A DNA stretch of 54,334 nt from a virus (IMGVR_UViG_3300048849_000181:1-54334), one strand, 5' to 3'. Numbered from the stretch's first letter, positions 796-17,532 are shown. Numbers and translations: made by a program. Notes: generated from the sequence alone by a model not told the origin.

Positions 796-796
796 G

Positions 797-1165
797 CTAT
801 TTCTCTTTTACAATGCTTTTTGCCTTTTGGCCTACTGTTGTCCGAATGGTACTGTCCAATTCCTTTTTATCTTGGGCCTGTTGAAGGATAATTCCATTCT
901 TGATAAGTAGAGCTGTTGTGAGAGCATCTTTGTCGGCGCGTGCTTGGGTAAGTTCTTTTCGGAGCTCTGTTTTTTCAGCCTCGCAGTTGATGTTTACCTG
1001 GTCAGAACTCGTTCCAAACCGATATACAAAGTACCACATAACCGATATTGCCACCAGCATATAATACGTTGGTGGGGATGCTAGAGCCTGCTTGAATCCG
1101 GAAAACCATGACCCTTTATCCTTAGTTAAGTCGACCTGTCCCATGTTAACTTCTTCTTCCGGCAT
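797..1165 (-). CDS. Single-TM membrane protein of the lysis cassette (holin or spanin-subunit candidate)
   Basis: One TM segment (YYMLVAISVMWYFVY) followed by coiled coil; coupled to the endolysin stop. Confidence 0.45.
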   Translation of the reverse strand: MPEEEVNMGQVDLTKDKGSWFSGFKQALASPPTYYMLVAISVMWYFVYRFGTSSDQVNINCEAEKTELRKELTQARADKDALTTALLIKNGIILQQAQDKKELDSTIRTTVGQKAKSIVKEK

Positions 1166-1824
1166 TAGACTTTATTCAATTCAGCCAAAGTAGCGGGCCC
1201 AACTATTCCGTCCTGATCCAGCCCGTGTTTCTTTTGGAATTCTAGAACTGCAGCTTTGGTGTTTTTACCCAAGATCCCGTCCGCATCAATCCCGAGTTTA
1301 GTTTGGATATGCTTCACATGATTAATATACATCTGCTCATCGGTAGCATGCTGCTCCTCTACTGGAGTAAAGTAAACAACAGCTTCTCGTTTGCGGCGGC
1401 TCAACAGAATTGGCTTACCATCTGCAAACTTCCACTTCTCGAACTCAGTTCTGATGCTCTTGTCGTCCTTGTTGGCGTTTACTTTCTTTAGAAGCGTAGA
1501 TCCCTTGAAGCCCTTAGTGCCAGTGCCGATATTGTAGGTGAGAGACGTAAGCGCATCAAATTGATTCTGATTGATATCATCCCTGGTAACAGAATAAACA
1601 CCAAGTTCAAACTGGCGCACCATCATCCGGAAATATCTTATTGCTTGCTCGGTGGTAAGCGGCGGATCCATCATCTTAACTTTTAGCCCAGAATCGGGGT
1701 AAAACGTCATCCCAACCCCAATCGTCGGGATTCCGGATGAATCAAGATACGGCCGTTTTACCAGGCCTTCTTCCTGCATTATAAATTGAACACCTTTGTT
1801 TGATAGCTGCGTAATCTCTTTCAT
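1165..1824 (-). CDS. Endolysin: GH24 phage lysozyme plus C-terminal peptidoglycan-binding domain
   Basis: EEG..PYLDSSGIPTIGVG catalytic motif, QNQFDALTSLTYNIG, RRKRE; C-terminal ADGILGKNTKAAVLEFQ..GL..DGIVGPAT. Confidence 0.92.
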   Translation of the reverse strand: MKEITQLSNKGVQFIMQEEGLVKRPYLDSSGIPTIGVGMTFYPDSGLKVKMMDPPLTTEQAIRYFRMMVRQFELGVYSVTRDDINQNQFDALTSLTYNIGTGTKGFKGSTLLKKVNANKDDKSIRTEFEKWKFADGKPILLSRRKREAVVYFTPVEEQHATDEQMYINHVKHIQTKLGIDADGILGKNTKAAVLEFQKKHGLDQDGIVGPATLAELNKV

Positions 1825-1938: not shown

Positions 1939-3282
1939 CTACTTCACCTGGAGAATGGAAGCCAAAGAGAGTCCGCCTTTGAATTCATCATCGAAGATTG
2001 CAGGAGCGTATGGCATGGGAACTTTCTTGTAGTTCATAAAGTTCTTGCCATGAGTATAAGACCATGTTGTGATTCCGTATTGAAGTGTGGCTGGCAACGT
2101 CCGGAATCCGGTGGTGATCTCCTTGTACTTAGCGGACCGTTGTACTTCTTCCGTTGGCTTACATGCAATATCCAGTTCCGATAAATGAACCAACAGATTA
2201 TTCTTGGCCATTTCATCAAGACGTTTCTTGAACTGCTTGTAATCCATTTTCAGGTTAGTGTGCATTTGCGAGCTGATACCGTGTACCAGGCCTTTCCTTT
2301 TGAGTTCACCGGCATAGGCGATCACCACGGTCGCTTTCTTACTGGCAGTTTCAAAATCATAATCGGATATGAAGTTGTTGGCAGTCGGCTGCACCTCTAA
2401 AACCCATTTGGCTATTTGCTCCGGATAACTTTCGCCCATATGGGTAAGCGCATAGCACGGTCTGGGCTTGCCATTATCCTGGTGCGCTTCATTTGTTATA
2501 TCCCAGGAGAAAATATCGTTCTTGAATTCCTTTACTGTGGTTTGTACGTGCTTTTTCAGCAAGGCGATGTATTTGTCCTTAACCTTTGCCGCCTCGTGCC
2601 AGAAAGCCGGAAGATTCTTTTCTTGGCCTGGCCAAACGAAACAAGCATGACCATGGACACGCATGCTTTTGGCTTTAGCAAGTTTAACGAGGGCCTTTGC
2701 GTCTGAGAAATCAAACTGCCCTTCTTTCGGCTGTACGTGGCCGGTCTTGATTCCGTTCTCAGGTGTTAAAGACTCAAACTGCTCATAGGTTTTTTCGATC
2801 ACCTTGGCGTTTTTCAGATCACCTTCCTTGAATGCTACGCCCCATTTCACGGGAGATTGTTTCAGGGATGCTGCCGGTGGCATCGGATCCGGAGCGGGTG
2901 AAGGTTTAGGAAATGGAACAATCACGGGCTCCGGCTTAGTTTCAACAGGAACAGGCACTGGTGGAACTTCAATTACGGGATCTGGTTTAACCGATTCTTC
3001 CTTTGCTGGCTCAGGTATGACCTCGACAGGTTTGTCGGGCTGTTGTTCAGGGAAATGTGCTGGCGCCGGGGGAATAGGCGCTACCACAATTGGCGGATCA
3101 GTTGGAATGATCACAGGATCCTCTTCTGGCTTTTCGGGTTCGATCGCCGGTGGCACATCTGGGATGGGCTCTTTAACAGGATCTTTAACCGGATCAACTG
3201 TAATCGGTACCTGAACCGGCGCAGCCTGCTCGGCTTTTATAATTCCCAACAGACGCAATAATTTTAGAAGTAACTTTTTCAT
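1939..3282 (-). CDS. GH10 (endo-xylanase family) glycoside hydrolase with amphipathic N-terminus and long Pro/Glu-rich linker
   Basis: TPENGIK, HGHACFVW, WDITNE (acid/base), QMH, LSELD (nucleophile), ITTW; start reassigned to ATG 3282 (MKKLLLKLLRLLG). Confidence 0.85.
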   Translation of the reverse strand: MKKLLLKLLRLLGIIKAEQAAPVQVPITVDPVKDPVKEPIPDVPPAIEPEKPEEDPVIIPTDPPIVVAPIPPAPAHFPEQQPDKPVEVIPEPAKEESVKPDPVIEVPPVPVPVETKPEPVIVPFPKPSPAPDPMPPAASLKQSPVKWGVAFKEGDLKNAKVIEKTYEQFESLTPENGIKTGHVQPKEGQFDFSDAKALVKLAKAKSMRVHGHACFVWPGQEKNLPAFWHEAAKVKDKYIALLKKHVQTTVKEFKNDIFSWDITNEAHQDNGKPRPCYALTHMGESYPEQIAKWVLEVQPTANNFISDYDFETASKKATVVIAYAGELKRKGLVHGISSQMHTNLKMDYKQFKKRLDEMAKNNLLVHLSELDIACKPTEEVQRSAKYKEITTGFRTLPATLQYGITTWSYTHGKNFMNYKKVPMPYAPAIFDDEFKGGLSLASILQVK

Positions 3283-3306
3283 AGATAAGTTTAGAATTGT
3301 ACTGCA

Positions 3307-3369
3307 TAAACTTACTTCTGCCGCCGACAGCAGGAAACGTAAACCCTTGACAATGGTGCATATTGTCAA
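3307..3369 (-). promoter_or_regulatory. Late-type promoter 2 (GH10 gene)
   Basis: TAAGTTTA at 3307-3314; palindrome TTGACAATggtgcatATTGTCAA at 3347-3369. Confidence 0.7.
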
Positions 3370-3425
3370 TTATTTTGGTAGTTATTACCTATTTTAATTG
3401 CCGTCTTTGCTACGAATATTTACAC

Positions 3426-3545
3426 ATGAAAAACATTGTAATAATCGCGGCATTATTATTGGCTATGACTAGCTGTAAAAAAGAAGATCCGAAGCCTACC
3501 CAGGCAGAAATACAAGCCATGTCAAAGGCTCATAAGGTTATGTAA
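3426..3545 (+). CDS. Very short (39 aa) or truncated lipoprotein
   Basis: MKNIVIIAALLLAMTS-CKKEDPK signal peptide II; ends overlapping the stop of the convergent tail gene. Confidence 0.55.
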   Translation: MKNIVIIAALLLAMTSCKKEDPKPTQAEIQAMSKAHKVM

Positions 3546-6500
3546 GTATAGCCGTTAGGGCATCTCGATACCCTTGTTTAGTCGTGAAATCATCGTTAAA
3601 CAGTAGCGGGTAGTCAGCGTTACCTGATTCAATCACTTTCCAATAACCGGAATCTATGATCCCCCATGTTGTGATTCCGAACTTCTGCACGGAGGGTATC
3701 GCTTTGAATGCATTGAAAATGGTAACGAACTTCGCGGCTTGTGAGGCTTCAAGCTCCGGTGTTAAGACAAATGGGTTTGGTACGGTTCCTTCGCGAAGCT
3801 GAATTGCAAGCTCGGAGATATGGATTTTTAAACCTGTATCAACAAGGCGTTGCAAGTTGCTTGTTATGCCGTTGTTTGACATACTGAGGTAAGTGTGAAG
3901 CTGTAAGCCCCAACCGTGCATCGGTATACCTGCAGCTTGGTACTCAGTTGCAAGCCTAACCATCTCATCAACCTTTTTCCAACCGTATTCCCAGCCGTAA
4001 TCATTAAGGAAGTACAGGCACGTTGGATCTGCCTCATAGGCATACTGAAAAGCTAATTTAATGTAGTCGGGGCCTAATACACGCAACCAAACACAGTTTT
4101 TGAAAACTACACGTGCGGTGGTATCTATGTCTGCAGCTTCAAGGAATGGTTCGTTAACTACATCCCAGGATTTAATTACACCAGACACTGAGGCTGTATT
4201 CTTGTAATGCAGAATTGGGGCCTGAATCAGATCCTTTAGTTTGTCCTTCCATTGTTGGGTTGTCAGGGTTCCTGCCGTTTCGTAGTCCTTAATGTACTGA
4301 GGGATATACGCATCCTTTGCCCATAATAAACAATGTCCGTGAACAGTGAGCCCGTTTTCTTTTGCCCAGGCTACCTGCGTATCAGCATTCGCATAATTAA
4401 AGGTGGTTTCATTTACCCTTGTTGTTGTGGTCTTTAGATCGTTCTCAATCGTGAACCTGGGCGCATGATTGATCAACGTTGTAGTATAGTTGGTATTTGA
4501 TGTCTGCCCTCTCTTTGTCACAAGTCCAAGGGGAAAGTTCGCTGCCTTGAATGTGGTCGGGGTAATATCAATAGGTGGATCAACGCCACCGCCGGTATCA
4601 GGTACGTACCCAGTATCATTGGTGTTATCTACAGGCAGGCTAGTTGGATCGTTAACGGTTATTGATCCAGGCGTTGTCGCTGTTTCATAACCAACGATCA
4701 GCCCGTTTTCGATTAGCAGTTTCTTGTTATCGGTGGTGCCTGCAAATGGTGGGATAATTATAGATCCGGATATTGTCCGTTTACCGGAATTTACCGTAAA
4801 TCCGTCGCGGTCCATTGTAATTTCTTTTCCGTTTCCTCCGGCTCGATACGCCCAATTAGTGAAAAATCCCCTGCGCCCCATCGAAGAAAATCCATCAGAG
4901 TTGTTTGGCGATAAACCCACTCGGAAGCCTGGGCCGTATACAGGAACGATAGTCGGCCTACCAAAGTCATTAAGCTGCAATGTATAACCTTCAATGGCTA
5001 CATCATCATCCATAATGATAACGGCATCACCATCCGCATCCTCGATTATGATATTGTTGTTTTCGGCGGTAATCCTAACCTTTCCGGTCAGTAAGTTCCG
5101 GGCAACTATGTAATCGGCGTTGATCAGGTTTGCGGTGATCGTTCCCGTGGCAGGATCAATAATAGCAGTTCCAGGCGGCAGGTAGTCCACTCCCGTCAAA
5201 GTCTTGACGTACTCAGCCATCCGCTTGAAATAATTGGATTTGCTGATTGTAGTCTTGACTTGCTGCTTGGTTTCCTGAATATCACTAAGCACCCGTTCAG
5301 TAAGCGTGTAGGGAACAAAGTTTGCGATCTCAACAACGATCTTAGTAGAGGGCGTAATCTGCTCCGGAAAGTTAACCGGATATTGCACCTTACTCACCCT
5401 GATCAGCTCATTAATTCCAAGTGCCTCATCCACTATTGTCACCCGATCTCCAGGCTGCAGCATGATGTTGTTGTCTCGGGTATAAAGCGGATCCAGTTCC
5501 AGGCTGTATAGGACTTGAGGTTTGGAATTGGTATTTAGCCATTCCAGTGTAGCTGCCCTTAGTTTAGCCTCAGCAGCGGTAACAAGCTCAGTTGGTAAAG
5601 GCATATCAAACAAGGTATACGTGTCGCCTGGTTGTGCCTGGAAGGTTGCGTTTGGTAGAGTAAGATTGTTACCGTCCTGAGAGACTTTCAGGGTGTAGGT
5701 TTTGGTTAAGTTATCGAAGTCCAAGATGTCAAATTCTTGACCTTGCAGCTCTCCGGATGTGAATGATAGCTTTGGCGTTTCAACAGACTTGTAATCGTTC
5801 AGATCAAAAGATAAACTGTCATCTATTACCTTGAATGTTCCGGACCCTTCTACCCATGCGACCGCATCGCTTATGGTCCCTTTTACCTCTGGATAAATAT
5901 CTTGGTTCTCGTAATCACCTTCCTTGACGCCGTAAAGTGCAACATTGTTCTCCAGATACCCATCATCAAACATCAGCTGAGTTGCGCCATCCCTGTAGTC
6001 CTCTGCTAGGTTGCGGGTGCTACCATAGCCATAAGCACGGGTAACAATGTTTTTGTCGTTCTGGTAGGCGTATGAAAGACTGTACAACCCATTTCCCTGA
6101 CCATATTTAAAAGTGAGTGGCCTTGTTGTGCCGACTTGCTTTGTAAACCGAATTACTTTACCGGTGACATCCCATTCAATTCCGAACGCTTCGGCTCCGG
6201 TGTCAAGCGCGGTTCTGCAAGTGTGGCCGGAGAAGTTAATCGTTTTCGGGTCCAAATCATCACAGACGCCGACGGTCCAACCTGGATCTATTTCGTTTAT
6301 GCAATCTACAATCAACTTAGCAAGTTCCGCGGGTGTGCAGAAGAACTGAAAAGTCCGGTTACCAAGGTGGCGTAGCTTCTTATCGTAGAGCCGGTAAAGA
6401 ATAGATTCAAAAACAACTGAGTATTTGTAAACCAACACTTCATTTTCAACTCCTTTACTCACGCTGGGTACTGTGTTCACGGTGTAGGGTTCACCCTTGT

Positions 6501-6657
6501 ACATGATATACGCGCCCACAGGACAAGTCAACACACCAGGTAGCAAGACTTCGGCCCGAATCTCTTTTGCACCCATCAGCTCCCATATAATTGAGATATC
6601 GTCTCGTAACGGGAATGACTCGATTGGTGTGGATGCTTTTAGGACGTCGGTATACAT
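3538..6657 (-). CDS. Tail-tip/baseplate hub-like (Tal-type) protein with C-terminal GH10 domain
   Basis: N-terminal phage tail motifs (FKYGQGNGLYSL, IVTRAYGYGSTRNL, LQPGDRVTIVD); last ~340 aa have TIENDLK, HGHCLLW, WDVVNE, QLH, ISELA, ITTWG. Confidence 0.85.
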   Translation of the reverse strand: MYTDVLKASTPIESFPLRDDISIIWELMGAKEIRAEVLLPGVLTCPVGAYIMYKGEPYTVNTVPSVSKGVENEVLVYKYSVVFESILYRLYDKKLRHLGNRTFQFFCTPAELAKLIVDCINEIDPGWTVGVCDDLDPKTINFSGHTCRTALDTGAEAFGIEWDVTGKVIRFTKQVGTTRPLTFKYGQGNGLYSLSYAYQNDKNIVTRAYGYGSTRNLAEDYRDGATQLMFDDGYLENNVALYGVKEGDYENQDIYPEVKGTISDAVAWVEGSGTFKVIDDSLSFDLNDYKSVETPKLSFTSGELQGQEFDILDFDNLTKTYTLKVSQDGNNLTLPNATFQAQPGDTYTLFDMPLPTELVTAAEAKLRAATLEWLNTNSKPQVLYSLELDPLYTRDNNIMLQPGDRVTIVDEALGINELIRVSKVQYPVNFPEQITPSTKIVVEIANFVPYTLTERVLSDIQETKQQVKTTISKSNYFKRMAEYVKTLTGVDYLPPGTAIIDPATGTITANLINADYIVARNLLTGKVRITAENNNIIIEDADGDAVIIMDDDVAIEGYTLQLNDFGRPTIVPVYGPGFRVGLSPNNSDGFSSMGRRGFFTNWAYRAGGNGKEITMDRDGFTVNSGKRTISGSIIIPPFAGTTDNKKLLIENGLIVGYETATTPGSITVNDPTSLPVDNTNDTGYVPDTGGGVDPPIDITPTTFKAANFPLGLVTKRGQTSNTNYTTTLINHAPRFTIENDLKTTTTRVNETTFNYANADTQVAWAKENGLTVHGHCLLWAKDAYIPQYIKDYETAGTLTTQQWKDKLKDLIQAPILHYKNTASVSGVIKSWDVVNEPFLEAADIDTTARVVFKNCVWLRVLGPDYIKLAFQYAYEADPTCLYFLNDYGWEYGWKKVDEMVRLATEYQAAGIPMHGWGLQLHTYLSMSNNGITSNLQRLVDTGLKIHISELAIQLREGTVPNPFVLTPELEASQAAKFVTIFNAFKAIPSVQKFGITTWGIIDSGYWKVIESGNADYPLLFNDDFTTKQGYRDALTAILT

Positions 6658-6673
6658 GCTTTGCGAAATATCA

Positions 6674-6736
6674 CGAAGCTAATGCAACAGTAACTCAGGC
6701 CTTAAAGTTACATTTGACAATAGTATATATTGTCAA
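6674..6736 (-). promoter_or_regulatory. Late-type promoter 3 (tail-tip gene)
   Basis: TAGCTTCG at 6674-6681; palindrome TTGACAATagtatatATTGTCAA at 6714-6736. Confidence 0.7.
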
Positions 6737-6867
6737 GGCTTAAACAAAAATCCCACTGATTAGGTGGGTAAATGGGTATAGGGCTTACGTGTGTTGGGTG
6801 GTATATAATCTATCTATGCAATTTATTTACACTTTAATTTTCTACATTTACGCCTCAAACAATAACA

Positions 6868-7065
6868 ATGGAAAAACAAATTAACGTCGGAGATTGGGTA
6901 TCTCACTCTCAATTAGCCCCTGATCACAAACTTCTTGTCGTAAAAGTTGATACTGATATTCTTACTGTCAGATATTATGATGGAAAATTCCACACGGTAG
7001 ATCTTTATTCTTTCGAGGTATCACCTTTCGACATCGATAGGTATAATGAATTGCCATTCGCTTAG
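6868..7065 (+). CDS. Small hypothetical moron protein (SH3-like/YodC-like beta protein)
   Basis: 65-aa ORF opposite to tail genes, VGDWV start pattern, followed by hairpin 7050-7076. Confidence 0.5.
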   Translation: MEKQINVGDWVSHSQLAPDHKLLVVKVDTDILTVRYYDGKFHTVDLYSFEVSPFDIDRYNELPFA

Positions 7066-7076
7066 CATGGCAATTC

Positions 7077-9335
7077 CTATGTCATCAATAGTTTGGCCAC
7101 TACCGGAGCGATTACATCGGTCATAACGAGGTATCCACCATCGTTCGGGTGAAGTCCGTCAGACTGTAAATATTTGTAGGCCGTAGGGACTGAAATCAGA
7201 TTATTGTAGTACATATCCAGGTATGGAACACCCATGATGTTGCATACATCAATAATTGCATTCCTGTAATCAATAAGCTTTAAGCCTATAGCATTTGCAT
7301 CTGTTTTATCTGACCGCTCAATTGGGGTAAGAAATAGGATTTTACAGGCAGGAGCGTTCGTTCTCAGCCAAGTTATAGCCTTGTATAAACTACCTTTAAC
7401 CGTCGTGTCTATCCCGTTTGCACCGTCCGCATAAGTTCCAATCGGTAATGCTCTAAAGAAGTCGTTAGTTCCTGCAGAAAATACACAAGCGTTTGATCCG
7501 GTAACAAACTGGTAAGTCAACTGCGCCCCAGATAACGTTGCTGCTTGCGGATAAATATTAGCTATTGTTGCGCCATTATCACCTCTATTTAGAACAGATA
7601 TACCAAGTTTCGCCCCGACTTGCTCAACAAATGAGGTATAACCGCCTGTACCATGAACAATTGAATCTCCAACCCATGTTACGGTTTTACCCGCCAAAGC
7701 ATTTGCTGTGGTCGGCAGTAGTTCTGGTAAGATGGTATTCGGAACACCGTAGGCCACGTATGTACTCCCGGCAACCGTACCGTATTCGACCATGAAGCTA
7801 TTTCTAGCCGCAGTAATATTTGCTGCTGTCTGAGATAAATTAACTTTCAGTGTTGCTGCTGTAGCTGGGATTGCTGCTGTCAGGGTCGCTGAAGTTCCTA
7901 CACGTACGCCGCTTGAGTTGAAAAAATGAAGGGTATCGTCGGTAGTTGTGACGTTTGACGCCCCTTTTGTAACTACAATATTGCCTTTTGCAGGGTCAAC
8001 AGGAACAGTAACATAGGCCCACGCTGTGCTTGCTACGATCACCCCATCTGAATTATTCAGTAATGCGCCTGTAGTAACCATAGTATCCTTGTCGAAAAGA
8101 TTCTGCCTGTTTAAGAAGAAAGACGTCTTATCTGGAGTAATTGCTTTATCCGCAACTTTTGCTGTTGCAATACTTTGGTCTGGGATGACGGGCGCCTCTA
8201 CTGCGCTGCTAGATAACTTGACGTAATAGGCTTCGTATGCAGTGTCCGTCCCTAGCGCGCTCATAATTGTACCGTATGATGGTGTAGCCTGGTTGAAGCG
8301 TGTATTATACCGTTTGAATGCCGCGCCAGCCGGAATAACGTGGGTTTTGTTCGCGCTGCCTGTAAGAACTCCGCCAGTAGTTAGTTTAACCTTGTTCGCA
8401 TCATAGAACACCACCACGAAACCTGTTGCCGTATCGTAGGTTAATCCTGAAACGGTCTCCGTGGTACCTGGTGTCACCGGCTGATAATCGCTATAAGATG
8501 AGTTCGCAAATGCCGAGAAAACACCTGCCGTGTTTAGATAGCCGCCCTCAGTCACAACACCGTTGAATTTATTCTTTCCGGCTATAAACTTTGACTCAAG
8601 CCCTAAAACGCCCGGATAGTTGGCTTTTGCGACATAAGGCGTAAGATCCGGAAGTATCTGTTCGACGTTGTTTGATGAGAGTTTTAACGCATAGGCCGTG
8701 TAAGCGGTGGCAGAGGAGCCAATTTCATACTGTATCGCACCATAATTAGGTGTGGTTTGGTTGTATCTGGTATTGAACCTTACTGTTGTAGCATTCGCCG
8801 GGATCGTATGCATTAATGACGCTGTAGAACTAATAAACGTCTTTGAAGAGTCGTAAAACACGAAATTAGGGCCTGCAGTAATCCCCGAAGCGGTCATGAC
8901 GTTTCCAGGTACAACAGGAATATAGTCGCTGTAAGAGGAATTTGCTGCAGGAAGGGGTGATCCCCCGGTAGAAAGATAGTATCCCTCGGTTATTTTTCCG
9001 TTCTTATTGAACTTGTTTTTCCCTACGACAAAGTTCCCTTCTATGGAGGCTATATTCGGGAATAAAGACTTTGTCAGAACATCGAAAAGTGTAGGTACAA
9101 GTTTGTCGTCACCGTAGTCCCCACCAATCCATTTGAATTCAGTGTAGCCGTCTACATCATTTCCAATATCTACAATCTTCAATTTTCTAAAACTAGTTGG
9201 TACACCGTCAACCATGACCACGGTATTCTTTATTGCCGCATTAGCAGCCGCAACAGTGGCATATGGGCCCCGCCAAGAATCAAGTGCACCAGGTAATAAA
9301 TTCTTTAATGGTCCAGGTATATCAAAAGGAATCAT
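7077..9335 (-). CDS. Tail-associated/receptor-binding protein with three repeated beta-domains and C-terminal SGNH/GDSL esterase
   Basis: SGNH blocks WVGDSI, G, GTNDF, DGLHPN; internal repeats GKNKFN..TEG.YL..ANSSYSDY.PV.PG; follows the distal tail gene. Confidence 0.8.
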   Translation of the reverse strand: MIPFDIPGPLKNLLPGALDSWRGPYATVAAANAAIKNTVVMVDGVPTSFRKLKIVDIGNDVDGYTEFKWIGGDYGDDKLVPTLFDVLTKSLFPNIASIEGNFVVGKNKFNKNGKITEGYYLSTGGSPLPAANSSYSDYIPVVPGNVMTASGITAGPNFVFYDSSKTFISSTASLMHTIPANATTVRFNTRYNQTTPNYGAIQYEIGSSATAYTAYALKLSSNNVEQILPDLTPYVAKANYPGVLGLESKFIAGKNKFNGVVTEGGYLNTAGVFSAFANSSYSDYQPVTPGTTETVSGLTYDTATGFVVVFYDANKVKLTTGGVLTGSANKTHVIPAGAAFKRYNTRFNQATPSYGTIMSALGTDTAYEAYYVKLSSSAVEAPVIPDQSIATAKVADKAITPDKTSFFLNRQNLFDKDTMVTTGALLNNSDGVIVASTAWAYVTVPVDPAKGNIVVTKGASNVTTTDDTLHFFNSSGVRVGTSATLTAAIPATAATLKVNLSQTAANITAARNSFMVEYGTVAGSTYVAYGVPNTILPELLPTTANALAGKTVTWVGDSIVHGTGGYTSFVEQVGAKLGISVLNRGDNGATIANIYPQAATLSGAQLTYQFVTGSNACVFSAGTNDFFRALPIGTYADGANGIDTTVKGSLYKAITWLRTNAPACKILFLTPIERSDKTDANAIGLKLIDYRNAIIDVCNIMGVPYLDMYYNNLISVPTAYKYLQSDGLHPNDGGYLVMTDVIAPVVAKLLMT

Positions 9336-9337
9336 AT

Positions 9338-10072
9338 TTATGCTATAGTAAATTTGTGTCTGTGATTAGTTGAATATGGTGCTCCGAGTTGGAGGCTGTA
9401 AATTTTGTAGTTCGTAGTCCCAATGGTTACGGTACCAGATAAGGTGTATGTGACGGCCGGGAAATATGGATTATCCAAATCCGTCACACTGGTGATGCCA
9501 TGATCGGACTGCAAGGCCAAGCTTATGATACGGTTGAAAGTCCCTGTCTGCACTTCTACCGTACTTGTAAACGGTACAGCAGTCAAAGCCTGAACGTCCG
9601 CTGCTGTTATTGGAACCGAACTACTTGTTCCGTAATAAATTGCAGAAGTCGGAAATATAAGACCTAATAACTCGTCAAATTCCATTGAAACTTTAGTCAC
9701 GATCTGACTACTTCCTTTTATCGGTGTCAGGCGGCTCCAGGCTGTAAAACCCTTGAACTTGGCATTTACCGTTTCATCGATCTCCTGCACGTAGATGGTT
9801 GCCTTTTGAACCTTGACAATTGTTTCAAGCGCAGCTTTTTTTAAATTGTAATCAGCTTCGCTTGTTGCGAAGATTGTTCCTGTGATTTTGAATAGCCTCG
9901 GCTCATCCCCTGGTACCGTAGTAAGATCCCAGTCAACAACTCCGTTCTCCCATTTATGGGAAAATACCTCTGCTGGATTATTCGGCCGCTCAAAAGAGTT
10001 AACTGAATCTCTGCTTGAATCTGCCAGGAACCCGCAAGAGTCAAAAAGATTTGTTCCGTTTATTTTATACAT
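9338..10072 (-). CDS. Distal tail protein-like with C-terminal extension
   Basis: Directly after tape measure gene; start reassigned to ATG 10072 (MYKINGTNL). Confidence 0.6.
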   Translation of the reverse strand: MYKINGTNLFDSCGFLADSSRDSVNSFERPNNPAEVFSHKWENGVVDWDLTTVPGDEPRLFKITGTIFATSEADYNLKKAALETIVKVQKATIYVQEIDETVNAKFKGFTAWSRLTPIKGSSQIVTKVSMEFDELLGLIFPTSAIYYGTSSSVPITAADVQALTAVPFTSTVEVQTGTFNRIISLALQSDHGITSVTDLDNPYFPAVTYTLSGTVTIGTTNYKIYSLQLGAPYSTNHRHKFTIA

Positions 10073-13000
10073 ATTGGTTTCCACTTCCCCGTAACGATGT
10101 TCCCGAGGAAGCGCTATTTTTTGCAATGGTTTTTAATTCTGTTAATTGGGAATCCATGCGCTGGATCATAATTCCTGTGTTTTCTGCTGTCTGCTGCTGC
10201 CATCTTACCCCTTGCATAGAAGCATCAAGTATTTGCATGGCGGTAGCGTTTCCGGTGGTTTGAAGCATAGCTAATACTTTCAGGTAATCGTATGAACCTC
10301 TTGAAATTCCTTCCAAGGCGTTCGCCTGGTCACTGGTGATCTGCGTAATGTTCTTTTGAAGAGCAGAGGTTTTAGATCCGGAATCCGGATCATCCAAATC
10401 AATCCCAGTTGCCGCTGCAAGATCTGCCAGGTCCTTTTTTGCCTTCTCAGCCGCGGCCATGTAAACGGAACGTAGCTTTTCGATTTCTTCTGGAGACAAA
10501 CTGCTGTCCGCTGTTGCCGCTGAAAACTGATCATAGAAACCTTGAAGCTGCTGCTGAATTAGCTTACCTTTAAATCCATTTAAAATAGACTTCCGGATAA
10601 TATCCTCGAATGACTTTCCGAAGTCCTGGGTACCGTCCGTGAGTTTGCTGACGAAGTCGTCTGCGATTTCAGATAAGGATGAGCCAATATTCTCAGCATT
10701 AAGCGCGTTCTGCAGGTCAACAGCTTGTTGTTTAACCTTGATCAGGTTCTCAACGATCTTTGCCGTAGCATCATCAAGCTTGCCATTATCAAGGTAGTCC
10801 TGAAGGGCGCCCAGCGGCGTGTTCTCCGACAACCTTGTGAATACAGGGTTGTTCCGAAACTCTTTGTCGTATGCTGTAGCGATGCCAGCATTGTATTTGG
10901 CAATCTCATCATCCAGTCCTTTGTCCCCTGTTAAGACAATCTTTCCGGATAGTTTTGCTTGGTACGTTTCGGTGTCTTTCGCTATTTGAGAAAGCGCCTC
11001 AGAGTATTTAAGCAACCGATCGGTTCCATAAGCATCGTTGATCAGGGCAACTTGTCGTTCAAGTGCACTGTTTATTGCGTCAAGCTGCTTGCTCTGCAGT
11101 TCTGCGGAATAAGACCTTTGCGCCTCCCTTTCTGCAGAACGATCAAACAGGCCTTCAAGCGAAGAGATGATTGAGAAACCAGCGCCGAATACACCAAGCC
11201 CCGCGCCCAATGCACTAAGCATATCACCCTTGCCACTGGCCGCTTTCAGATCAGCCATTCCCTTCTTGATGTTGCCGACCTGGCCTACGACATTCCCGAC
11301 AGTAGAAAGCATCTTACCAAAACCCTCATCGACCTTGGAAACGGATGATGCGAGATTGTCGATTTGATTGGCCAGGTTGATCAGTCGATCCGGCATGCGG
11401 TCCTTTAGCGCCTTCTCGGTGTCTGTGATCAGCTTTCTAATTTGATCAGCCATTTCCTTGCTCACCTTACCCTGCAGGGTTAAGGTATCAAGCATGTTCT
11501 TGGCGTTGTAGATCACCTTGGCAGCATTCTCATCAGAAAGGCGATCAATACCTTCAAACAGCCTTTTATACGCATCAAGTGTTTGAACCTTGTTATCGTC
11601 AAGGCTTTTTAGATCTTCCTGGTAACGGAGAGTTCGGGCGGCCTGCGCTTCAGGGTTACCTTCAAGAGTGGCAAAGTCTGCATTGTACTTTTCCATCAGT
11701 ACCTTCCGCTGTTGGCTGTAGGTCATGAACTCTTTTACCAGCGCATCGTATTTCTTCTGCTCGGCGTTTACCTCATCCTGGATACGCTTGTCGTAATCAT
11801 GTAGTCGTTCCAATTCGGCGCCGTTCATTTGGGTAGGATCCTTTGTAAGCAGCTTAGCCCTGCCTGCTTCCAGGTACTCCAGGTATGTATCGTATTTTCT
11901 TTTATTTTCCTCCAGTGTTAAGTTATAAACAGTGTTGTCATTTAACCGGTGTTCGTCCGCAGCATCCTTGCCTAATCTGGTCTTGTATTCCTCATACTCA
12001 GCATACAAGCCTTTTTGTTTATCCAGTTCGATCTTTACCTTTTCCGTAGTTTGTCTATACTGAAGGTCAGAGATAGCCTGGTCCCGGGTTTCAGTCAGCT
12101 TGGATGTATCTACCAGGTGAAGCTTGTTCTTTGGATCCGCATTGAACTTGGCCGCTTCGTCGGCGATGCGCTTGAACTTATCACGGATGGCTTGCAACTC
12201 AGACTCATCTTTGGTTGCTGATTTACGCGTGTATTCGGCATTAATCTCGTCGATACGTTTTTGCAAGGATTCTTGTTGCTTAATCGCAGGATCTACTGGA
12301 GTCTTTGGAACCTTGTCTCCTTCTGTTGCAAAGAAGTTAAACTTGTATTTTTTCGCAATAGCGGCGGCATCTGCCTGGAACTTATCAGCTATTTTAGTCC
12401 GGTCATTTGTAAGTTTGTCAGCTTGCCGTGATTCCCTGTTCGCTGCATTGATGATCACCTTATCGGTGTAACCTGCATCCTGCTCAAAGGCGACTTTCAA
12501 GCGCTCACCGATAGTGAGGTTCTCGTAACCGGATATATCATTCGGGTTGCTAATGGTCGCACGCCCCTTCTCTCTGATTTGTTCCGCCTTGTAAGCTTCT
12601 TTGGCAGCGTCCTCTAGGGCTAGTTGCGCAGCGGCTTTCATGAGCGTCATTTTCAGGTAAGCATCAGCATTCCTTATTAATCCCTGCTCAGCTTCATTTA
12701 GGTTCTTAACCTGGCCAGTAGTTTTCCCGATGGTCTCGTTGTACTCTTTGACAACACTGGATTTGCTTAATATCCCTTCTTTCGCCAGGCCAATGTTTAT
12801 GCGCAGCTCATTTACGTTTTTAGCAGCATTAGCATACTCGCTGCTGGACATTGCATCATTCAGCTTGGCTTGCTCCTTTTGGGCATCTGTTAGCTGCTTT
12901 TTAAACAGGTCTAATGATGACAAGTAGTTCATGATCGGCTCAACCGCAAACGCAAGCAGGCCGGCGATACCTATCCCCGGTAAGGCAGCAGCAACGTACT

Positions 13001-13907
13001 TGAGCCCCGTCCAGAGTTTACCGACACCAATCGAGCTTTTTGCGACAGCATTACCCATTTCATCAAAACCTTTCTTACCGGCATTCTGTAAGCGGCCGAT
13101 CTCAGCAGAAGTTTCCTCGATCTTCTGGTTAAGGTTCACGAATGATTGCGGTGCCCGAGCTTTCAACAAGCCCTCGTTGTACATCTTGAGCTTGGCGTTT
13201 AGGATCTCGATCTTACCCGCTGTTCCGGTGATCTTGTTCCCGAGTTCATCGAAGCCAGCTTTACCGACGTTACGCAAACGGGCAATCTCTGCCTGAGTTT
13301 CTCGCACTTTGTTGTTGTATTCGCTTAGGCGTTTGCTGTCAGTAGATGAATCTGCAATGTTTTGGTATGATTGGAGTTCGATCTTTAAAGACCTGATTGC
13401 CTTTTGAGCATTTTGCACAGCCTGGGTATTGCTGTTTGCTCCTGTTACAGCCTCGTTGTATGCCTTTTTGGCCTGGACACCATAGCCTGCGGCTTCACTG
13501 GAAAGCCTGTTCCATTCAGCGGAAGATCCAACAACGGTGCCGCCAGTAACTGTTCCAACCGATCCGGATTTGGCGGCGTTGATTTCGTCTTGTGAATTGG
13601 ATATCTGAACTGGCCTGATCTGCCTACCATTCGCATCGAAGGCAGCATTCTTCCGCTTGATAGCTTCTGTCGCCCGGTCGGTTGCCTTTGCTTCCTCGTT
13701 GGTAGATTTAACAACATCATCAGAAGCAGTCTTTTGCTTTTTAGTAGCCTCGGTTGCCTTTTCACGGCCTTTTACTTCAGCGTCAATGCTTGAACCGATT
13801 TCTTTTTGGATCTTATCGCTGTTCTCTTTTGCAATCTTGGCAATACCGGCCAAGGTCTTCTTGAGTTCGGAATCGTCACCAGTAATCTTGAAATTTAATT
13901 CAGGCAT
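10065..13907 (-). CDS. Tail tape measure protein
   Basis: ~1280 aa, Ala/Lys/Glu-rich helical, two hydrophobic Gly-rich patches; start ATG 13907 (MPELNFKITGD). Confidence 0.85.
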   Translation of the reverse strand: MPELNFKITGDDSELKKTLAGIAKIAKENSDKIQKEIGSSIDAEVKGREKATEATKKQKTASDDVVKSTNEEAKATDRATEAIKRKNAAFDANGRQIRPVQISNSQDEINAAKSGSVGTVTGGTVVGSSAEWNRLSSEAAGYGVQAKKAYNEAVTGANSNTQAVQNAQKAIRSLKIELQSYQNIADSSTDSKRLSEYNNKVRETQAEIARLRNVGKAGFDELGNKITGTAGKIEILNAKLKMYNEGLLKARAPQSFVNLNQKIEETSAEIGRLQNAGKKGFDEMGNAVAKSSIGVGKLWTGLKYVAAALPGIGIAGLLAFAVEPIMNYLSSLDLFKKQLTDAQKEQAKLNDAMSSSEYANAAKNVNELRINIGLAKEGILSKSSVVKEYNETIGKTTGQVKNLNEAEQGLIRNADAYLKMTLMKAAAQLALEDAAKEAYKAEQIREKGRATISNPNDISGYENLTIGERLKVAFEQDAGYTDKVIINAANRESRQADKLTNDRTKIADKFQADAAAIAKKYKFNFFATEGDKVPKTPVDPAIKQQESLQKRIDEINAEYTRKSATKDESELQAIRDKFKRIADEAAKFNADPKNKLHLVDTSKLTETRDQAISDLQYRQTTEKVKIELDKQKGLYAEYEEYKTRLGKDAADEHRLNDNTVYNLTLEENKRKYDTYLEYLEAGRAKLLTKDPTQMNGAELERLHDYDKRIQDEVNAEQKKYDALVKEFMTYSQQRKVLMEKYNADFATLEGNPEAQAARTLRYQEDLKSLDDNKVQTLDAYKRLFEGIDRLSDENAAKVIYNAKNMLDTLTLQGKVSKEMADQIRKLITDTEKALKDRMPDRLINLANQIDNLASSVSKVDEGFGKMLSTVGNVVGQVGNIKKGMADLKAASGKGDMLSALGAGLGVFGAGFSIISSLEGLFDRSAEREAQRSYSAELQSKQLDAINSALERQVALINDAYGTDRLLKYSEALSQIAKDTETYQAKLSGKIVLTGDKGLDDEIAKYNAGIATAYDKEFRNNPVFTRLSENTPLGALQDYLDNGKLDDATAKIVENLIKVKQQAVDLQNALNAENIGSSLSEIADDFVSKLTDGTQDFGKSFEDIIRKSILNGFKGKLIQQQLQGFYDQFSAATADSSLSPEEIEKLRSVYMAAAEKAKKDLADLAAATGIDLDDPDSGSKTSALQKNITQITSDQANALEGISRGSYDYLKVLAMLQTTGNATAMQILDASMQGVRWQQQTAENTGIMIQRMDSQLTELKTIAKNSASSGTSLRGSGNQYV

Positions 13908-13911
13908 GGCA

Positions 13912-13974
13912 CGAAAGTACCCGAAGGAAAACACGCAGGAAAAGGCTTGTTTTGACAATATATACCATTGTCAA
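13912..13974 (-). promoter_or_regulatory. Late-type promoter 4 (tape measure gene)
   Basis: TACTTTCG at 13912-13919; palindrome TTGACAATatataccATTGTCAA at 13952-13974, spacer inverted relative to the other four copies. Confidence 0.7.
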
Positions 13975-14082
13975 GCATTGGTGAGATCAAGGAGTCTCGA
14001 TGAAATGGATGGTCACAACAATTATACAGTAGCTATGTGGATTATTAAGTATTTTCAGTTTCACTTAAACTGAACAAAGAAT

Positions 14083-14700
14083 ATGAAAAAAGTTTTCCAA
14101 AAAGTATTTTTTAGCCTGCTATTATTTGGCTTAACCTTTTCGGCTTGTAAAAAAGAAAACAACACTACACAAGCAAACGAAACTCAAGGGCAAAAGATGG
14201 TGACCAAGAAGGAGGTGATTTCTCAATCAGCAACATTGTCATCAACTGAGTATGTTTACCTAGCCAGAACAAACAGTGTATATGGCGGACCTGATCCAAT
14301 AGATAACTGGGACACCTTTAGGATCTATCAGGAGGGTAGTAACAGAAACTTAAGAGTGGAATACGAAGCTCGAGAATATTCATTAAGTAAGCCTTTATCA
14401 GCTCCACTATTAGTTGGGCCAGGGATTGTATATATACATGCATATCCAAACTACTTTTATGACTATTCTTTAGAAAACGAATATATGAATCTCTCGACCG
14501 GTTCAACTGGCGGTGTTAAACAAAAGGTTTATGTAATTAAAATTAAAAAGGTGATTGACTTTGACACAAAAGAAGATATCACTTCTAAAGTCAACATATT
14601 TCCTACAGACGGAATAAAGGTTCAAATAACAATGAATACAATAAACCTTGATACTCACGTGGGTCCTACCAAACCTTGGTGGCCCGTTATTACTCCATAA
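14083..14700 (+). CDS. Lipoprotein moron of unknown function
   Basis: MKKVFQKVFFSLLLFGLTFSA-CKKENN lipobox; AT-rich; opposite strand to tail genes. Confidence 0.75.
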   Translation: MKKVFQKVFFSLLLFGLTFSACKKENNTTQANETQGQKMVTKKEVISQSATLSSTEYVYLARTNSVYGGPDPIDNWDTFRIYQEGSNRNLRVEYEAREYSLSKPLSAPLLVGPGIVYIHAYPNYFYDYSLENEYMNLSTGSTGGVKQKVYVIKIKKVIDFDTKEDITSKVNIFPTDGIKVQITMNTINLDTHVGPTKPWWPVITP

Positions 14701-14711
14701 CCTAATGCGAA

Positions 14712-14761
14712 ATATCATTTGTAATTGGCTTGTATTCAAATTAGCCAATTACCAATGATAT
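14712..14761 (+). terminator. Long hairpin after lipoprotein gene
   Basis: ATATCATTtGTAATTGGCT ... AGCCAATTACcAATGATAT inverted repeat. Confidence 0.5.
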
Positions 14762-14863
14762 CTTTGGATCCTTTTGCCGCTTCGTTAATTCAGGCATATT
14801 GCAAGTATGCCCACCCCCTGAATTAGGGTGAATTTACAGTTTTGACAGTATGCACAGCCTCAA
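14741..14863 (-). pseudogene. Degenerate duplicate of tape measure gene start and its late promoter
   Basis: TTAATTCAGGCAT (MPEL) at 14785-14797 identical to 13895-13907; decayed palindrome TTGACAgT... starts 45 nt away, same spacing as at the real gene. Confidence 0.55.
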
Positions 14864-14868
14864 GTATT

Positions 14869-14902
14869 AAAAAAAAGAGCCTTTCAGATTTGAAAGGCTC
14901 TT
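14869..14902 (-). terminator. Intrinsic terminator downstream of GH10 moron
   Basis: AAGAGCCTTTCA-N4-TGAAAGGCTCTT with long T tract on minus strand. Confidence 0.8.
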
Positions 14903-14915
14903 GATTCGCGTGAGA

Positions 14916-17063
14916 TTATAGAGTATCCACCTGGATGTTACCCCATGCAGAGTAGTCGTCAACCTCTCCCCTTCCTCTAAAACCTACCTTTGTTTGAGCT
15001 AATAAATTCGAGTCTGTTGCGGTTCCCATGTGGTAATCATTGATGTAAACATCTATTGTTGATCCATTAGCTACAACCTTCACTACATCACCATCCTTGG
15101 CGTCAAACGGACTAGTAAGAAGCGTACTATTGTTATCATCCAAACGTCTTACTAATAACCACTTTCTATTTGTAGTTGAGTCATTTACCCGAACGGTAAA
15201 GAAATCCTTTACAGTGCTTGCTCTAAAAATTAGCATCGCACATCCAGGAGTTGTATAATCCAGCTTTGTACGTAATAGTTTTGCGGTCAAAGTAAAATTC
15301 GACAAACCACTATTAACAGTTGCAAGATTATATCTATCGCTAGTTCCTGCAATCGCTTCAAGTCCAACAGCTGTTACTTCCATACCGTCGTTACCAGAAC
15401 CAGTGGAGGCAACTGCCCAAGTTTTTGTCGATGTTCCGCCATTTGTGGTGAGACCATTAATGTTTCCTCTTGCACCAGCTGCAAATTCATCAAACACCAC
15501 TGGGAGTGGAGAGACTTTAATAAACTTCCAAGATGAAAATTTATCATCAAAGCCTCGCATTTTGTAACCGATTTTCGTTTCGGTTTGATACTGTGTTTCA
15601 GTGACAGTACATTGAAATATTCCGTCAATGTAAAGGCTGATTTTTGATCCATTGCACATAACCTTAATAATTTGTCCAGACGCCGGCTTAATAGAAGTCT
15701 TAAACAACTCTGTTTCGGTACTTCCACTACGTTTCATCAGCCTCCACTTACTATTGGCGCCTGCATTTTCAGCTTGTACAGCTAGCAAGTCGTTTTGTCC
15801 CAAGTACCTAAACACCATGTACATGACGCGAGATGTATAAATGTCTCTTGTCACATAGCCAGTTTCCGTTTCAAGAACATAGTCACTAATTCCAGCTTGC
15901 AGTATTGGGAAATTAAAGGTGTTCTGAGTAGTTTGTGACGCACTTAGGCCGGTTTCATCGATTTGAATCTTTGCAGCCTGATTTGGGCCTTCAAGCGTCC
16001 ATATCTTTGGAGTCGTCCCGCTGGTTAAATCGCCGATTACAGTATCATCATTGCCTAACTCAAAGTCTTGGAAAATCAATGGGCTGGATACAGGTTGCTC
16101 TAATAAGCTCAACACCTTGTAATACGCTTCTTTTGGCTGGTAAGAATAATCAAATAACATAGGATATTGCACTAGACCACCTACGTTATAATAGTTGTCA
16201 CGATCTGAAACAGACCACATAGTTATACCCCATTTCTTGTCCTGATCTACGATAGCCTTATCATAGGCACGAAATATTCCCCAATAAGCTTCTGCTAATT
16301 TACGAGCCATTTCTTCCGTGTAGTCAGGACCATCGGCCTCCGTTCTAATATCAAGTTCAGAAATAGCAACCTTAAAATCCGCGTCTGCATACATTTTAAG
16401 TTTTTCCCTCAAAAGATCAATATCAACCTCTAATCCTACATGCATCTGAAAACCAACACCATGAAAAGGCACTCCTGCTGCCGCAAGAGTAGCTTTAAGG
16501 GCAACTGTTTTGTTAAATCTACCCATAGATTCAAATTGCTGATTGTAGTCATTGTAAAAAAGCGTACAATCAGGGTCTGCCGCCGCCGCGGCCTGGAATG
16601 CGATTCTGAAATAGTCTTCTCCTAATACACGATACCAGAGACAATCTTGGAATGTTCCATCGTCCTTTAACGCTTCATTTACTACGTCCCAGCTATGAAC
16701 GTCGGTTTTAAAGTGATTAACTACAGTTGTAATGTGGTTTTGGATAATCTGGGTGATCTTCGTTACTGCATTTGGAGTATTTTCAAACGCTTTCACCCAG
16801 GCAGGAATATTCGCATCTTTTGCCCAGATTAAAGTATGACCATGAATCCGTAAGCCTCGCGCTTTTGCAAAGGCAACAATTTGATCTGCAGCCGTAAAGT
16901 CATAAACACTTTCAGAATCGCCGTGGACGACGCCGAATTTCATTTCGTTCTCTGGTGTTAACGTTTCTGCATCTGAATCGAACTTTGCAGTATACTCTGG
17001 CCTAGTTAATAATGATTGCTTAATTGCAAATCCCACTGGGAAACTAAAAGTTTTTAAATTCAT
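14916..17063 (-). CDS. GH10 glycoside hydrolase with two tandem C-terminal beta-sandwich (ConA/lectin-like) domains; no signal peptide
   Basis: TPENEMK, HGHTLIW, WDVVNE, FYNDYN, GFQMH, ISELD, ITMW; duplicated C-terminal domain (KVMCNGSKISLYIDG / KVVANGSTIDVYIND). Confidence 0.9.
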   Translation of the reverse strand: MNLKTFSFPVGFAIKQSLLTRPEYTAKFDSDAETLTPENEMKFGVVHGDSESVYDFTAADQIVAFAKARGLRIHGHTLIWAKDANIPAWVKAFENTPNAVTKITQIIQNHITTVVNHFKTDVHSWDVVNEALKDDGTFQDCLWYRVLGEDYFRIAFQAAAAADPDCTLFYNDYNQQFESMGRFNKTVALKATLAAAGVPFHGVGFQMHVGLEVDIDLLREKLKMYADADFKVAISELDIRTEADGPDYTEEMARKLAEAYWGIFRAYDKAIVDQDKKWGITMWSVSDRDNYYNVGGLVQYPMLFDYSYQPKEAYYKVLSLLEQPVSSPLIFQDFELGNDDTVIGDLTSGTTPKIWTLEGPNQAAKIQIDETGLSASQTTQNTFNFPILQAGISDYVLETETGYVTRDIYTSRVMYMVFRYLGQNDLLAVQAENAGANSKWRLMKRSGSTETELFKTSIKPASGQIIKVMCNGSKISLYIDGIFQCTVTETQYQTETKIGYKMRGFDDKFSSWKFIKVSPLPVVFDEFAAGARGNINGLTTNGGTSTKTWAVASTGSGNDGMEVTAVGLEAIAGTSDRYNLATVNSGLSNFTLTAKLLRTKLDYTTPGCAMLIFRASTVKDFFTVRVNDSTTNRKWLLVRRLDDNNSTLLTSPFDAKDGDVVKVVANGSTIDVYINDYHMGTATDSNLLAQTKVGFRGRGEVDDYSAWGNIQVDTL

Positions 17064-17486: not shown

Positions 17487-17532
17487 AAAGCCCGACTCGT
17501 TAGGTCAGGCGTTTAATATATCTTGTCTCCAT

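Follow-up and report, generated by a model that had tools for sequence, protein, structure and literature searches.

What use does a temperate phage have for three enzymes of a xylanase family? The question is raised by the 54,334-bp IMG/VR provirus record IMGVR_UViG_3300048849_000181:1-54334 (CheckV completeness, 65), which encodes three glycoside hydrolase family 10 (GH10) domains and is called the window below, meaning this stretch of DNA at its full length. A first-pass annotation had called it a prophage, a designation borne out by the provirus record and by its genes for an S24 repressor, replication proteins, a large terminase, an SPP1-type portal, a tape measure, tail-tip proteins, and an endolysin; almost all of its genes are on the minus strand. 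The element is probably a temperate siphovirus of a Sphingobacteriaceae host. This host assignment is based on best hits, as the full-length GH10-lectin protein and the lysis genes find their match in Pedobacter genomes and the N terminus of the tail-tip protein Tal is found at 57% identity in a Sphingobacteriaceae genome. The only sequencing run that contained the provirus DNA was a soil-metagenome DNA run. On balance, we judge it somewhat probable from sequence comparisons that the three GH10s are depolymerases of a surface glycan made by the host, which would serve at entry, at the infected-cell surface or release, and as an autonomous unit, and that they are not enzymes for feeding on xylan.

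Three divergent GH10 domains with intact catalytic motifs

A search of the whole record at the DNA level located GH10 (PF00331) domains at positions 1978-2862, 3562-4545, and 16110-17048, all on the minus strand, above the curated cutoff, and without internal stops. They belong to three proteins: P0001 (447 amino acids [aa] from the ATG at 3282; 1939..3282), with a proline-rich linker (the Pro-linker GH10); P0002 (1,039 aa; 3538..6657), in which GH10 is fused to a Tal-like tail-tip protein; and P0003 (715 aa; 14916..17063), a free-standing GH10 with two tandem lectin-like domains. All three are family members by whole-domain model match, with hmmscan E values of 4e-48, 6.2e-61, and 1.6e-78 and bit scores of 164.7, 206.8, and 264.5, respectively, against a cutoff of 22.1, covering positions 7-300, 8-307, and 11-309 of the 311 in the model. 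The best solved relatives were endo-xylanases, namely, PDB 1vbr for P0001 (E = 1e-30) and P0003 (E = 4e-52) and PDB 7nl2 for P0002 (E = 1.6e-38). Each domain aligned end to end with solved endo-xylanases, with the N-E and [ST]-E motifs in register, and from this homology (E = 1e-30 to 4e-52) we infer a (beta/alpha)8 barrel fold.

The motifs E-N..K, HGH, W-D-[IV]-x-N-E, and S-E-L were seen in each domain. We take the Glu of N-E to be the acid/base (at the end of beta-4) and the Glu of [ST]-E to be the nucleophile (at the end of beta-7), following general knowledge of GH10. Both glutamates are present in the three window domains, as checked on the DNA at codons 2488-2493 (N-E) and 2176-2181 (S-E) for P0001, 4150-4155 and 3811-3816 for P0002, and 16674-16679 and 16356-16361 for P0003. 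Both motifs were also invariant in the aligned families (14 of 14 members for P0003, 19 of 19 for P0001, and all four Tal fusions). The first-pass annotation had described three mutually divergent domains with these motifs in three architectures (a Pro-rich linker, a Prophage_tail fusion, and two C-terminal lectin-like beta-sandwiches), a description that stands: the Pfam and DNA searches and the solved-structure matches agree on where the domains lie, and the pairwise identities between them are 26, 31, and 34%. The window GH10s are thus true and apparently active domains in phage use.

Two of the three GH10 genes are kept in related proviruses

An IMG/VR search with the Pro-linker family retrieved five related proviruses (L091 to L095; 52 to 58 kb), making six with the window. 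In every one of the six, a Pro-linker GH10 gene separates Tal from the lysis genes. The tail module also contains a GH10 in all six, fused to Tal in four (the window, L091, L092, and L094); in L093 and L095, Tal itself has no GH10, and the gene immediately upstream encodes a protein of 797 or 830 aa in which an N-terminal domain is joined to GH10 and lectin. The two membrane proteins of the window's lysis cassette have homologues downstream in five of the six, with none detected in L091. The first-pass annotation had proposed looking for the same trio in related prophages, and here its picture changes: the exact trio was found in the window only, and the relatives carry two GH10s. Recent, decaying host insertions, which that annotation had named as the finding that would speak against it, are excluded because no family shows any variation at the catalytic residues. 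The sequences indicate a lineage-wide GH10 system, not decaying host DNA.

In a sample of 301 Sphingobacteriaceae genomes, relatives of the Tal N terminus were found in seven and the GH10 part of Tal in none; no close Pro-linker GH10 was found at an E value of ≤1e-60, and the full-length GH10-lectin protein was found in the center genome only. As the genomes are a sample, these negatives do not amount to absence. No PHROGs matched P0001, P0003, or the 797- and 830-aa GH10-lectin proteins of the tail module. The Tal part matched 75 GenBank phage records, none of which covered the GH10 part.

A GH10 domain inside the tail-tip protein

P0002 is composed of a Tal N-terminal part (∼5233-6657), a conserved middle (4558-5232), and GH10 (3541-4557). 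Prophage_tail (PF06605; E = 5.9e-12) and GH10 share one open frame, and PHROG tail-protein families match the N-terminal half. An enzyme domain thus sits inside a structural tail protein in P0002, which is the case for neither P0001 nor P0003 in the window, and the earlier suggestion that one GH10 serves entry as part of the virion is well supported for this fusion. In addition to L091, L092, and L094, the fusion was seen in the proteins P0156 and P0158, and an exhaustive search of 1.84 billion proteins gave four clusters with Tal plus GH10 among the best 150 representatives. In P0002, Ala takes the place of the Asp that usually comes after the nucleophile (ISELAI), while P0158 retains the canonical S-E-L-D.

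The C-terminal position of Tal appears to be a slot. P0157, whose Tal is 57% identical to that of the window, has Pectate_lyase_4 in the same place, and P0158 combines Tal, GH10, and a lectin-like domain homologous to both repeats of P0003 (E = 2e-18 and 1e-16), so that the GH10-lectin module is physically present in tail proteins of relatives. Between the window and L091, identity is 32% over the Tal N termini, 79% over residues 487 to 1039, and 97% over the last 280 residues, indicating a recent exchange of the GH10-bearing half. On the DNA, this half lies at 3538-5200 in the window and 5683-7362 in L091 (79 to 97% identity), and the other tail genes barely match.

A second slot lies directly upstream of Tal; it holds an SGNH protein in the window, the GH10-lectin protein in L093 and L095, and a pectate-lyase-like protein in L092. 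The window protein (752 aa; 7077..9335, minus strand) matches PHROG tail fiber and virion structural families and ends in an SGNH/GDSL esterase domain (∼7116-7673; Lipase_GDSL_2, E = 1.9e-17); it may be a deacylase that works alongside the tail GH10. By eye, two or three internal repeats of ∼150 aa (..GKNKFN..SSYSDY..) precede the SGNH domain; these may be carbohydrate-binding modules (CBMs).

A proline-linked GH10 beside the lysis genes

P0001 begins with an 18-residue amphipathic stretch (helix, ∼3229-3282), followed by a proline-rich spacer of ∼120 residues (∼2863-3225) and then GH10 (1978-2862). Its start is likely the ATG at 3282, as in the homologues, and not the TTG at 3369 that opens the longer open reading frame (ORF) (1939-3369). 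The first-pass annotation had found no classical signal peptide or lipobox in any of the three proteins, which inspection upheld for the window. It does not extend to the relatives of P0001, of which 7 of the 19 aligned, including the L092 and L094 copies, have a lipoprotein-type start with a lipobox-like ..F-x-Q-C; the copies in the window, L091, L093, and L095 have the amphipathic helix in its place. As an exported lipoprotein cannot be part of a virion, the Pro-linker GH10 is best read as a membrane-tethered enzyme, carried on a proline rod, that would act on the infected or lysogenic cell. An identity as an o-spanin was considered, given the Pro-rich sequence, the lipobox in relatives, and the adjoining protein with a transmembrane (TM) helix and coiled coil; it was set aside because it leaves a conserved, catalytically intact GH10 of 300 aa unexplained.

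Directly downstream is the endolysin (1165..1824, minus strand; Phage_lysozyme plus PG_binding_1), followed on the same strand by the two lysis-cassette membrane proteins, one with a single TM helix and a coiled coil (797-1165) and the other (264 aa; 1-795) with a TM helix at its N terminus, a coiled coil, and a beta-rich C terminus ending in ..FDILRF. The 264-aa protein had no Pfam or PHROG hit and is kept beside endolysins in L092 to L095 and in two Pedobacter loci (L004 and L005). Conceivably, it serves Bacteroidota phages in lysis, either in the manner of a spanin or by disrupting the outer membrane. Homologues of both membrane proteins lie downstream of the GH10 gene in the same six loci.

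The two Pedobacter loci deserve separate mention. Each has a four-gene cassette (L004, 10001-13908; L005, 10001-14196) of a full-length GH10-lectin protein, an endolysin, and two TM/coiled-coil proteins, the last three genes being homologues of window positions 1-1824 (TM plus coiled coil in one membrane protein, with an added beta-rich part in the other). Neither setting is phage-like: in L004, the neighbors are GlmS, UDP-Glc dehydrogenase, ManC, Wzi, and two helix-turn-helix genes, with a flavohemoglobin on the other side, and in L005 they are a SusD-like protein, a TonB-dependent receptor, PAP2, an S41 peptidase, a RES domain, and a histidine kinase. The cassette is the remnant of a prophage or else a module for lysis and glycan cleavage that has been domesticated.

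A free GH10-lectin gene between terminators

P0003 is located between tail genes and the tape measure (10065..13958, minus strand; PHROG tape measure family, E = 6.2e-09), which sets the tail module between this gene and the tail-tip genes. Its GH10 occupies 16089-17063, and its two lectin-like domains (ConA/LamG, DUF1080-like; 15504-16088 and 14919-15503) are beta-sandwiches homologous to each other. An Atlas search with the C terminus returned clusters of the PF06439 (DUF1080) type, and Foldseek with an AF2 model (pLDDT 59.5, from a three-sequence alignment) returned tandem galectins, laminin LG pairs, BT3469, and CBM66. As the model is of moderate quality, "lectin-like" is valid at the level of fold class only.

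The gene has the features of a moron. A terminator-like hairpin with a 12-bp stem and a T run (14875..14902, minus strand) directly follows its stop codon, and another (17490..17510, minus strand) lies upstream, closing the preceding tail-gene transcription unit. The GC content of the island is 0.388 to 0.417, against ∼0.45 to 0.47 in neighboring windows, and within it lie an ORF on the opposite strand and a truncated piece of SRAP, a 101-aa ORF (17078-17383, plus strand) that matches the C-terminal quarter of SRAP only (PF02586; E = 5e-06, just below the cutoff). With hairpins on both sides, low GC, the opposite-strand ORF, and the SRAP fragment, we consider P0003 a moron; the tail operon is interrupted here, and the site is empty in a relative, as no GH10 gene was found between the chaperone-position ORFs and the tape measure in the locus L001. 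Separately, a 52-aa, very hydrophobic ORF (17533-17691, minus strand) with two TM stretches by eye overlaps the stop of the gene before it, and the terminator at 17490-17510 comes next. A possible promoter motif, TAAGTTTG, was seen by eye near the P0003 region, which does not by itself establish a promoter; a sigma-70 scan, which does not model Bacteroidota promoters, was at chance (12 found versus 10.5 expected and 6 versus 6.0).

Thirteen full-length homologues of P0003 were found, at 46 to 83% identity. A single-query search of viral contigs with P0003 gave no match, and an alignment of its family found only distant viral GH10s (26 to 35% identity) there; among nine such IMG/VR ORFs examined, eight were 346 to 470 aa long, and several had signal-peptide-like starts by eye. 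Five of 50,697 GenBank phage records matched P0003, all of them unannotated fragments from fecal metagenomes.

The phage GH10s group with enzymes of polysaccharide-biosynthesis loci

To place the phage domains, we subsampled 169 GH10 domains for a quick tree (125 rows) and a careful tree (56 rows), the latter rooted on actinobacterial, fungal, and other sequences, with support given as UFBoot/SH-aLRT. In the quick tree, the three phage groups formed one cluster (SH-aLRT 93) beside chromosomal GH10s of Pedobacter. In the careful tree, the phage groups and both Pedobacter clades were split from other Bacteroidota GH10s, including those linked to SusC, at 100/99; the phage groups joined the lipoprotein-type Pedobacter clade at 94/95 and stood alone at 73/73. 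Long branches (P0158 and the Pro-linker stem) call for caution here. The loop after HGH-x-x-W has a 2-residue insertion common to the Tal type, the lectin type, and the lipoprotein-type Pedobacter clade and a longer insertion in the Pro-linker family. The first-pass annotation had held that the phage repeatedly recruited GH10. Use of GH10 by the phage is supported, but the tree does not separate repeated capture from a single old one: with a weak phage cluster inside the Pedobacter GH10 radiation, a single early capture whose products then diversified has the same likelihood as three separate ones.

The nearest cellular relatives are found in an informative setting. Seven Pedobacter loci have GH10 genes inside polysaccharide-biosynthesis clusters and not in SusC-linked utilization loci. 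In the Pedobacter quisquiliarum locus L013 (121-10978), the order is ABC ATPase, GT4, GT4, CDP-glycerol glycerophosphotransferase, GH10, GH10, a GT47-like protein (a weak match, below the Pfam cutoff), and GH10. The block of ABC, two GT4s, and glycerophosphotransferase recurs upstream of the GH10 pair in L006, L009, L011, and L012, and the ABC plus GT4 pair recurs in L007, L014, L021, and L023. L007 (265-14587) reads Wzz/Wzc-like, GT2, GT4, GT2, Alg14-like, GT28-C, a protein of unknown function, ABC exporter, GH10, and GH10, followed by Bac_transf and GT2 on the other strand. In the Pedobacter pairs, one GH10 has a lipoprotein signal followed by acidic residues, and the other has a signal of the SPI type. 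With one SusC-like query protein, no SusC-like gene was found in the flanks of the 11 loci of the two Pedobacter clades, and one was found in the flanks of 27 of the other GH10 loci. As the nearest cellular GH10s thus sit in biosynthesis loci, the choice that the first-pass annotation had left between host capsule or exopolysaccharide (EPS) and environmental xylan as the substrate tips toward the former, with xylan less favored.

Two observations may be recorded beside these. GH10 pairs or triplets occupy the core of polysaccharide-biosynthesis clusters in Arcticibacter as well as Pedobacter (L006, L007, L009, L011 to L014, L021, and L023). In addition, the GH10-less Tal of L093 (1,725 aa; 2428-7605), which had no Pfam hit, matches PHROG 2204 ("glycerophosphoryl diester phosphodiesterase"; E = 6e-77) over residues 1115 to 1345; if real, this match may fit the glycerophosphotransferase of the Pedobacter loci, or it may instead reflect a shared noncatalytic tail segment.

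What the phage GH10s may do

We propose that Tal-GH10, at the tail tip beside the SGNH esterase protein, would cut a glycan layer during adsorption and entry; its placement is seen in the fusion itself, and its activity is predicted. The Pro-linker GH10, anchored through a lipidated Cys in some relatives and putatively through the amphipathic helix in the window, with the long proline-rich spacer between it and the membrane, would strip the same glycan from the infected or lysogenic cell, and this may free progeny and keep them from sticking to debris, or else exclude superinfecting phages. The free GH10-lectin protein would be an autonomous moron product, probably a soluble, glycan-targeted enzyme whose module recurs in tail proteins of relatives. 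All three may descend from the GH10 stock kept in Pedobacter polysaccharide-biosynthesis loci, and the host's own processing hydrolases for the target glycan would then be GH10s. The roles in exit (lysis) and lysogeny suggested by the first-pass annotation are plausible on this evidence, given the gene position, the lipobox-bearing relatives, and the terminator-flanked moron, and are less firmly placed than the role in entry.

Several points weigh against such depolymerases. To our knowledge, characterized GH10s are overwhelmingly plant-xylan enzymes, and we found no report in the literature of a xylan-like surface polymer in Pedobacter. The Pro-linker GH10 of the window has no export signal recognizable by inspection, which leaves its route to an extracytoplasmic glycan before lysis unexplained. 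Ala replaces the Asp after the nucleophile in three of the four Tal-GH10 fusions and may lower their activity. The free GH10-lectin protein of the window is without the N-terminal attachment domain that its counterparts in L093 and L095 have. With regard to the phylogenetic argument, the GH10s of the Arcticibacter loci L021 and L023, which have ABC/GT4 neighbors, branch among the SusC-linked group, and usable flanks are missing for four of the 11 Pedobacter loci, which lie on short contigs.

The main rival holds that these are auxiliary metabolic genes (AMGs), extra xylanases that would increase the carbon a polysaccharide-degrading host draws from plant xylan while it is lysogenic or infected. 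We regard this as unlikely, although the best matches of all three domains are bona fide endo-xylanases and all three genes are of a host metabolic type flanked by viral genes. P0003 in particular is autonomous, terminator flanked, and equipped with carbohydrate-binding-like domains, as a moron active in the prophage state would be; the small size of the other IMG/VR GH10s and the signal-peptide-like N termini of several of them also agree, and viral GH10s are listed as AMGs in virome papers (PMC13669679; for glycoside hydrolase families in soil viruses, 10.1101/583997), in the portions bearing on these genes. However, an AMG should serve host metabolism and not a core viral step, and P0002 is covalently part of the tail tip; for P0001, lysis adjacent with lipoprotein relatives, and for P0003, a moron, either role is conceivable. 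The AMG explanation is also opposed by the GH10 in the tail module of all six relatives, in a slot shared with pectate-lyase-like and esterase modules, by the grouping with biosynthesis-locus GH10s away from the SusC-linked ones (100/99), and by the lack of a secretion signal in the three window proteins on inspection.

Alternatively, the virion GH10 and lectin could bind and cut environmental xylan, in plant litter or retained at the cell by the xylan-uptake machinery, and so help the phage to pass through or dock onto particles occupied by xylan-feeding hosts. The tail-tip placement, the lectin- or CBM-like domains joined to GH10, the origin of the provirus DNA in a soil metagenome, and the many GH10 genes of Sphingobacteriaceae and other Bacteroidota (with the SusC-like flank in 27 other loci) are all compatible with such a strategy. 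We nevertheless find it improbable, as it explains neither a membrane-tethered Pro-linker copy by the lysis genes, with a lipobox in relatives, nor the affinity to biosynthesis-locus GH10s, and no precedent was found in the literature searched. A shade less probable again is a tail GH10 turned into a receptor-binding lectin with little or no turnover. The Ala in three of four Tal-GH10 proteins and the insertions in the loops after beta-4 and beta-7 would suit this, but both catalytic glutamates, E-N..K, HGH, Q-x-H, and the W positions are kept in the four Tal fusions and in both other families, and P0158 has the canonical S-E-L-D. Host DNA miscalled as provirus, or recent nonfunctional insertions, can practically be dismissed in spite of the low-GC P0003 island with its opposite-strand ORF and SRAP fragment and of the full-length GH10-lectin gene in nonphage chromosomal settings of two Pedobacter genomes, since phage structural or lysis genes flank all three GH10 genes on both sides, the frames are open with intact catalytic motifs, and two of the three genes are conserved in five other proviruses.

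Returning to host-glycan depolymerases, a more specific picture joins the phage and chromosomal genes, one that we offer tentatively and would sooner doubt than accept. Pedobacter and related Sphingobacteriaceae would make a GH10-cleavable surface polysaccharide, so far undescribed, built on a beta-1,4-xylan-like backbone and perhaps decorated with glycerophosphate; the biosynthesis-locus GH10s, as lipoprotein and periplasmic enzymes, would process it, and one lineage of temperate siphoviruses would have captured the enzyme as a receptor-destroying toolkit, comprising a blade at the tail tip, an enzyme tethered to the membrane on a proline rod for release or exclusion, and a free, lectin-guided copy. 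If true, this would be, for a glycan, the equivalent of systems that combine receptor binding with receptor destruction.

Other accessory genes of the provirus

The provirus also carries a tRNA-Met gene with a CAT anticodon (21956-22030, minus strand) and a KAP-family P-loop NTPase gene (35667-37196, minus strand; PF07693, E = 8e-13). The latter lies in a second low-GC stretch (GC, 0.38; 36 to 38 kb) and may be another accessory or defense-type moron.

Comparison with known systems

With GH10 endo-beta-1,4-xylanases (1vbr and 7nl2), the phage domains share full-length homology at 26 to 40% identity, both catalytic Glu motifs, E-N..K, HGH, Q-x-H, and the W positions. They differ in having no secretion signal or classical CBM, in the loop insertion after HGH-x-x-W and the Tal-type Ala after the nucleophile, and in their context, which is that of tail and lysis genes and not of a utilization locus.

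Glycoside hydrolases encoded inside exopolysaccharide-synthesis loci are known from the BcsZ, PslG, and PelA type. The Pedobacter GH10 pairs resemble these in lying at the core of a glycosyltransferase/exporter cluster and in having export signals and differ in family, being GH10s. In full-text literature searches, we found no paper on GH10 in EPS loci, no tail-fused or prophage GH10, and no Pedobacter phage depolymerase. The Pedobacter genes point to an unstudied GH10 class in bacterial polysaccharide-synthesis loci and, by extension, to a possible xylan-like surface polymer of bacteria.

Viral GH10s are routinely counted as carbon-cycle auxiliary genes in virome studies. Those described in the relevant part of PMC13669679 resemble the present ones in being GH10 genes on viral or proviral contigs with viral genes flanking, and they are read there as metabolic helpers, whereas here the fusion of one GH10 to a structural protein and the linkage of another to the lysis cassette point to viral core functions. 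AMG counts can therefore mistake infection machinery for metabolism. Viral core functions have been argued for GH19 and lysozyme-type CAZymes (10.1101/2024.12.20.629349), with no mention of GH10 in the passages concerned.

A predicted xylanase of Caulobacter phage Cr30 has been counted among depolymerases (Pires et al. 2016, cited in PMC5380687). Like the window GH10s, it is phage encoded, and it is annotated for beta-1,4-xylan; it differs in being a prediction only, with its family unstated in the passage of PMC5380687 that mentions it. No Caulobacter phage record matched P0003 at an E value of ≤1e-5, and so the Cr30 xylanase is not a detectable relative of the window GH10s.

The closest functional parallel is with virion-associated depolymerases, as the pertinent sections of PMC5380687 describe them. 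Shared with these is a C-terminal enzyme domain of a tail protein in a swappable slot, which in the lineage of the window holds GH10, pectate lyase, or SGNH esterase, as well as the presence of several enzymes per virion. The phage described here differs in using a GH10 TIM barrel in place of the usual beta-helix, in fusing it to the Tal/Prophage_tail hub of a Bacteroidota siphovirus, and in carrying alongside it a second, nonvirion GH10 copy that is probably membrane tethered. It would thereby add a TIM-barrel xylanase fold to the known tail depolymerases and offers a rare view of the putative receptor-degrading equipment of soil Bacteroidota phages.

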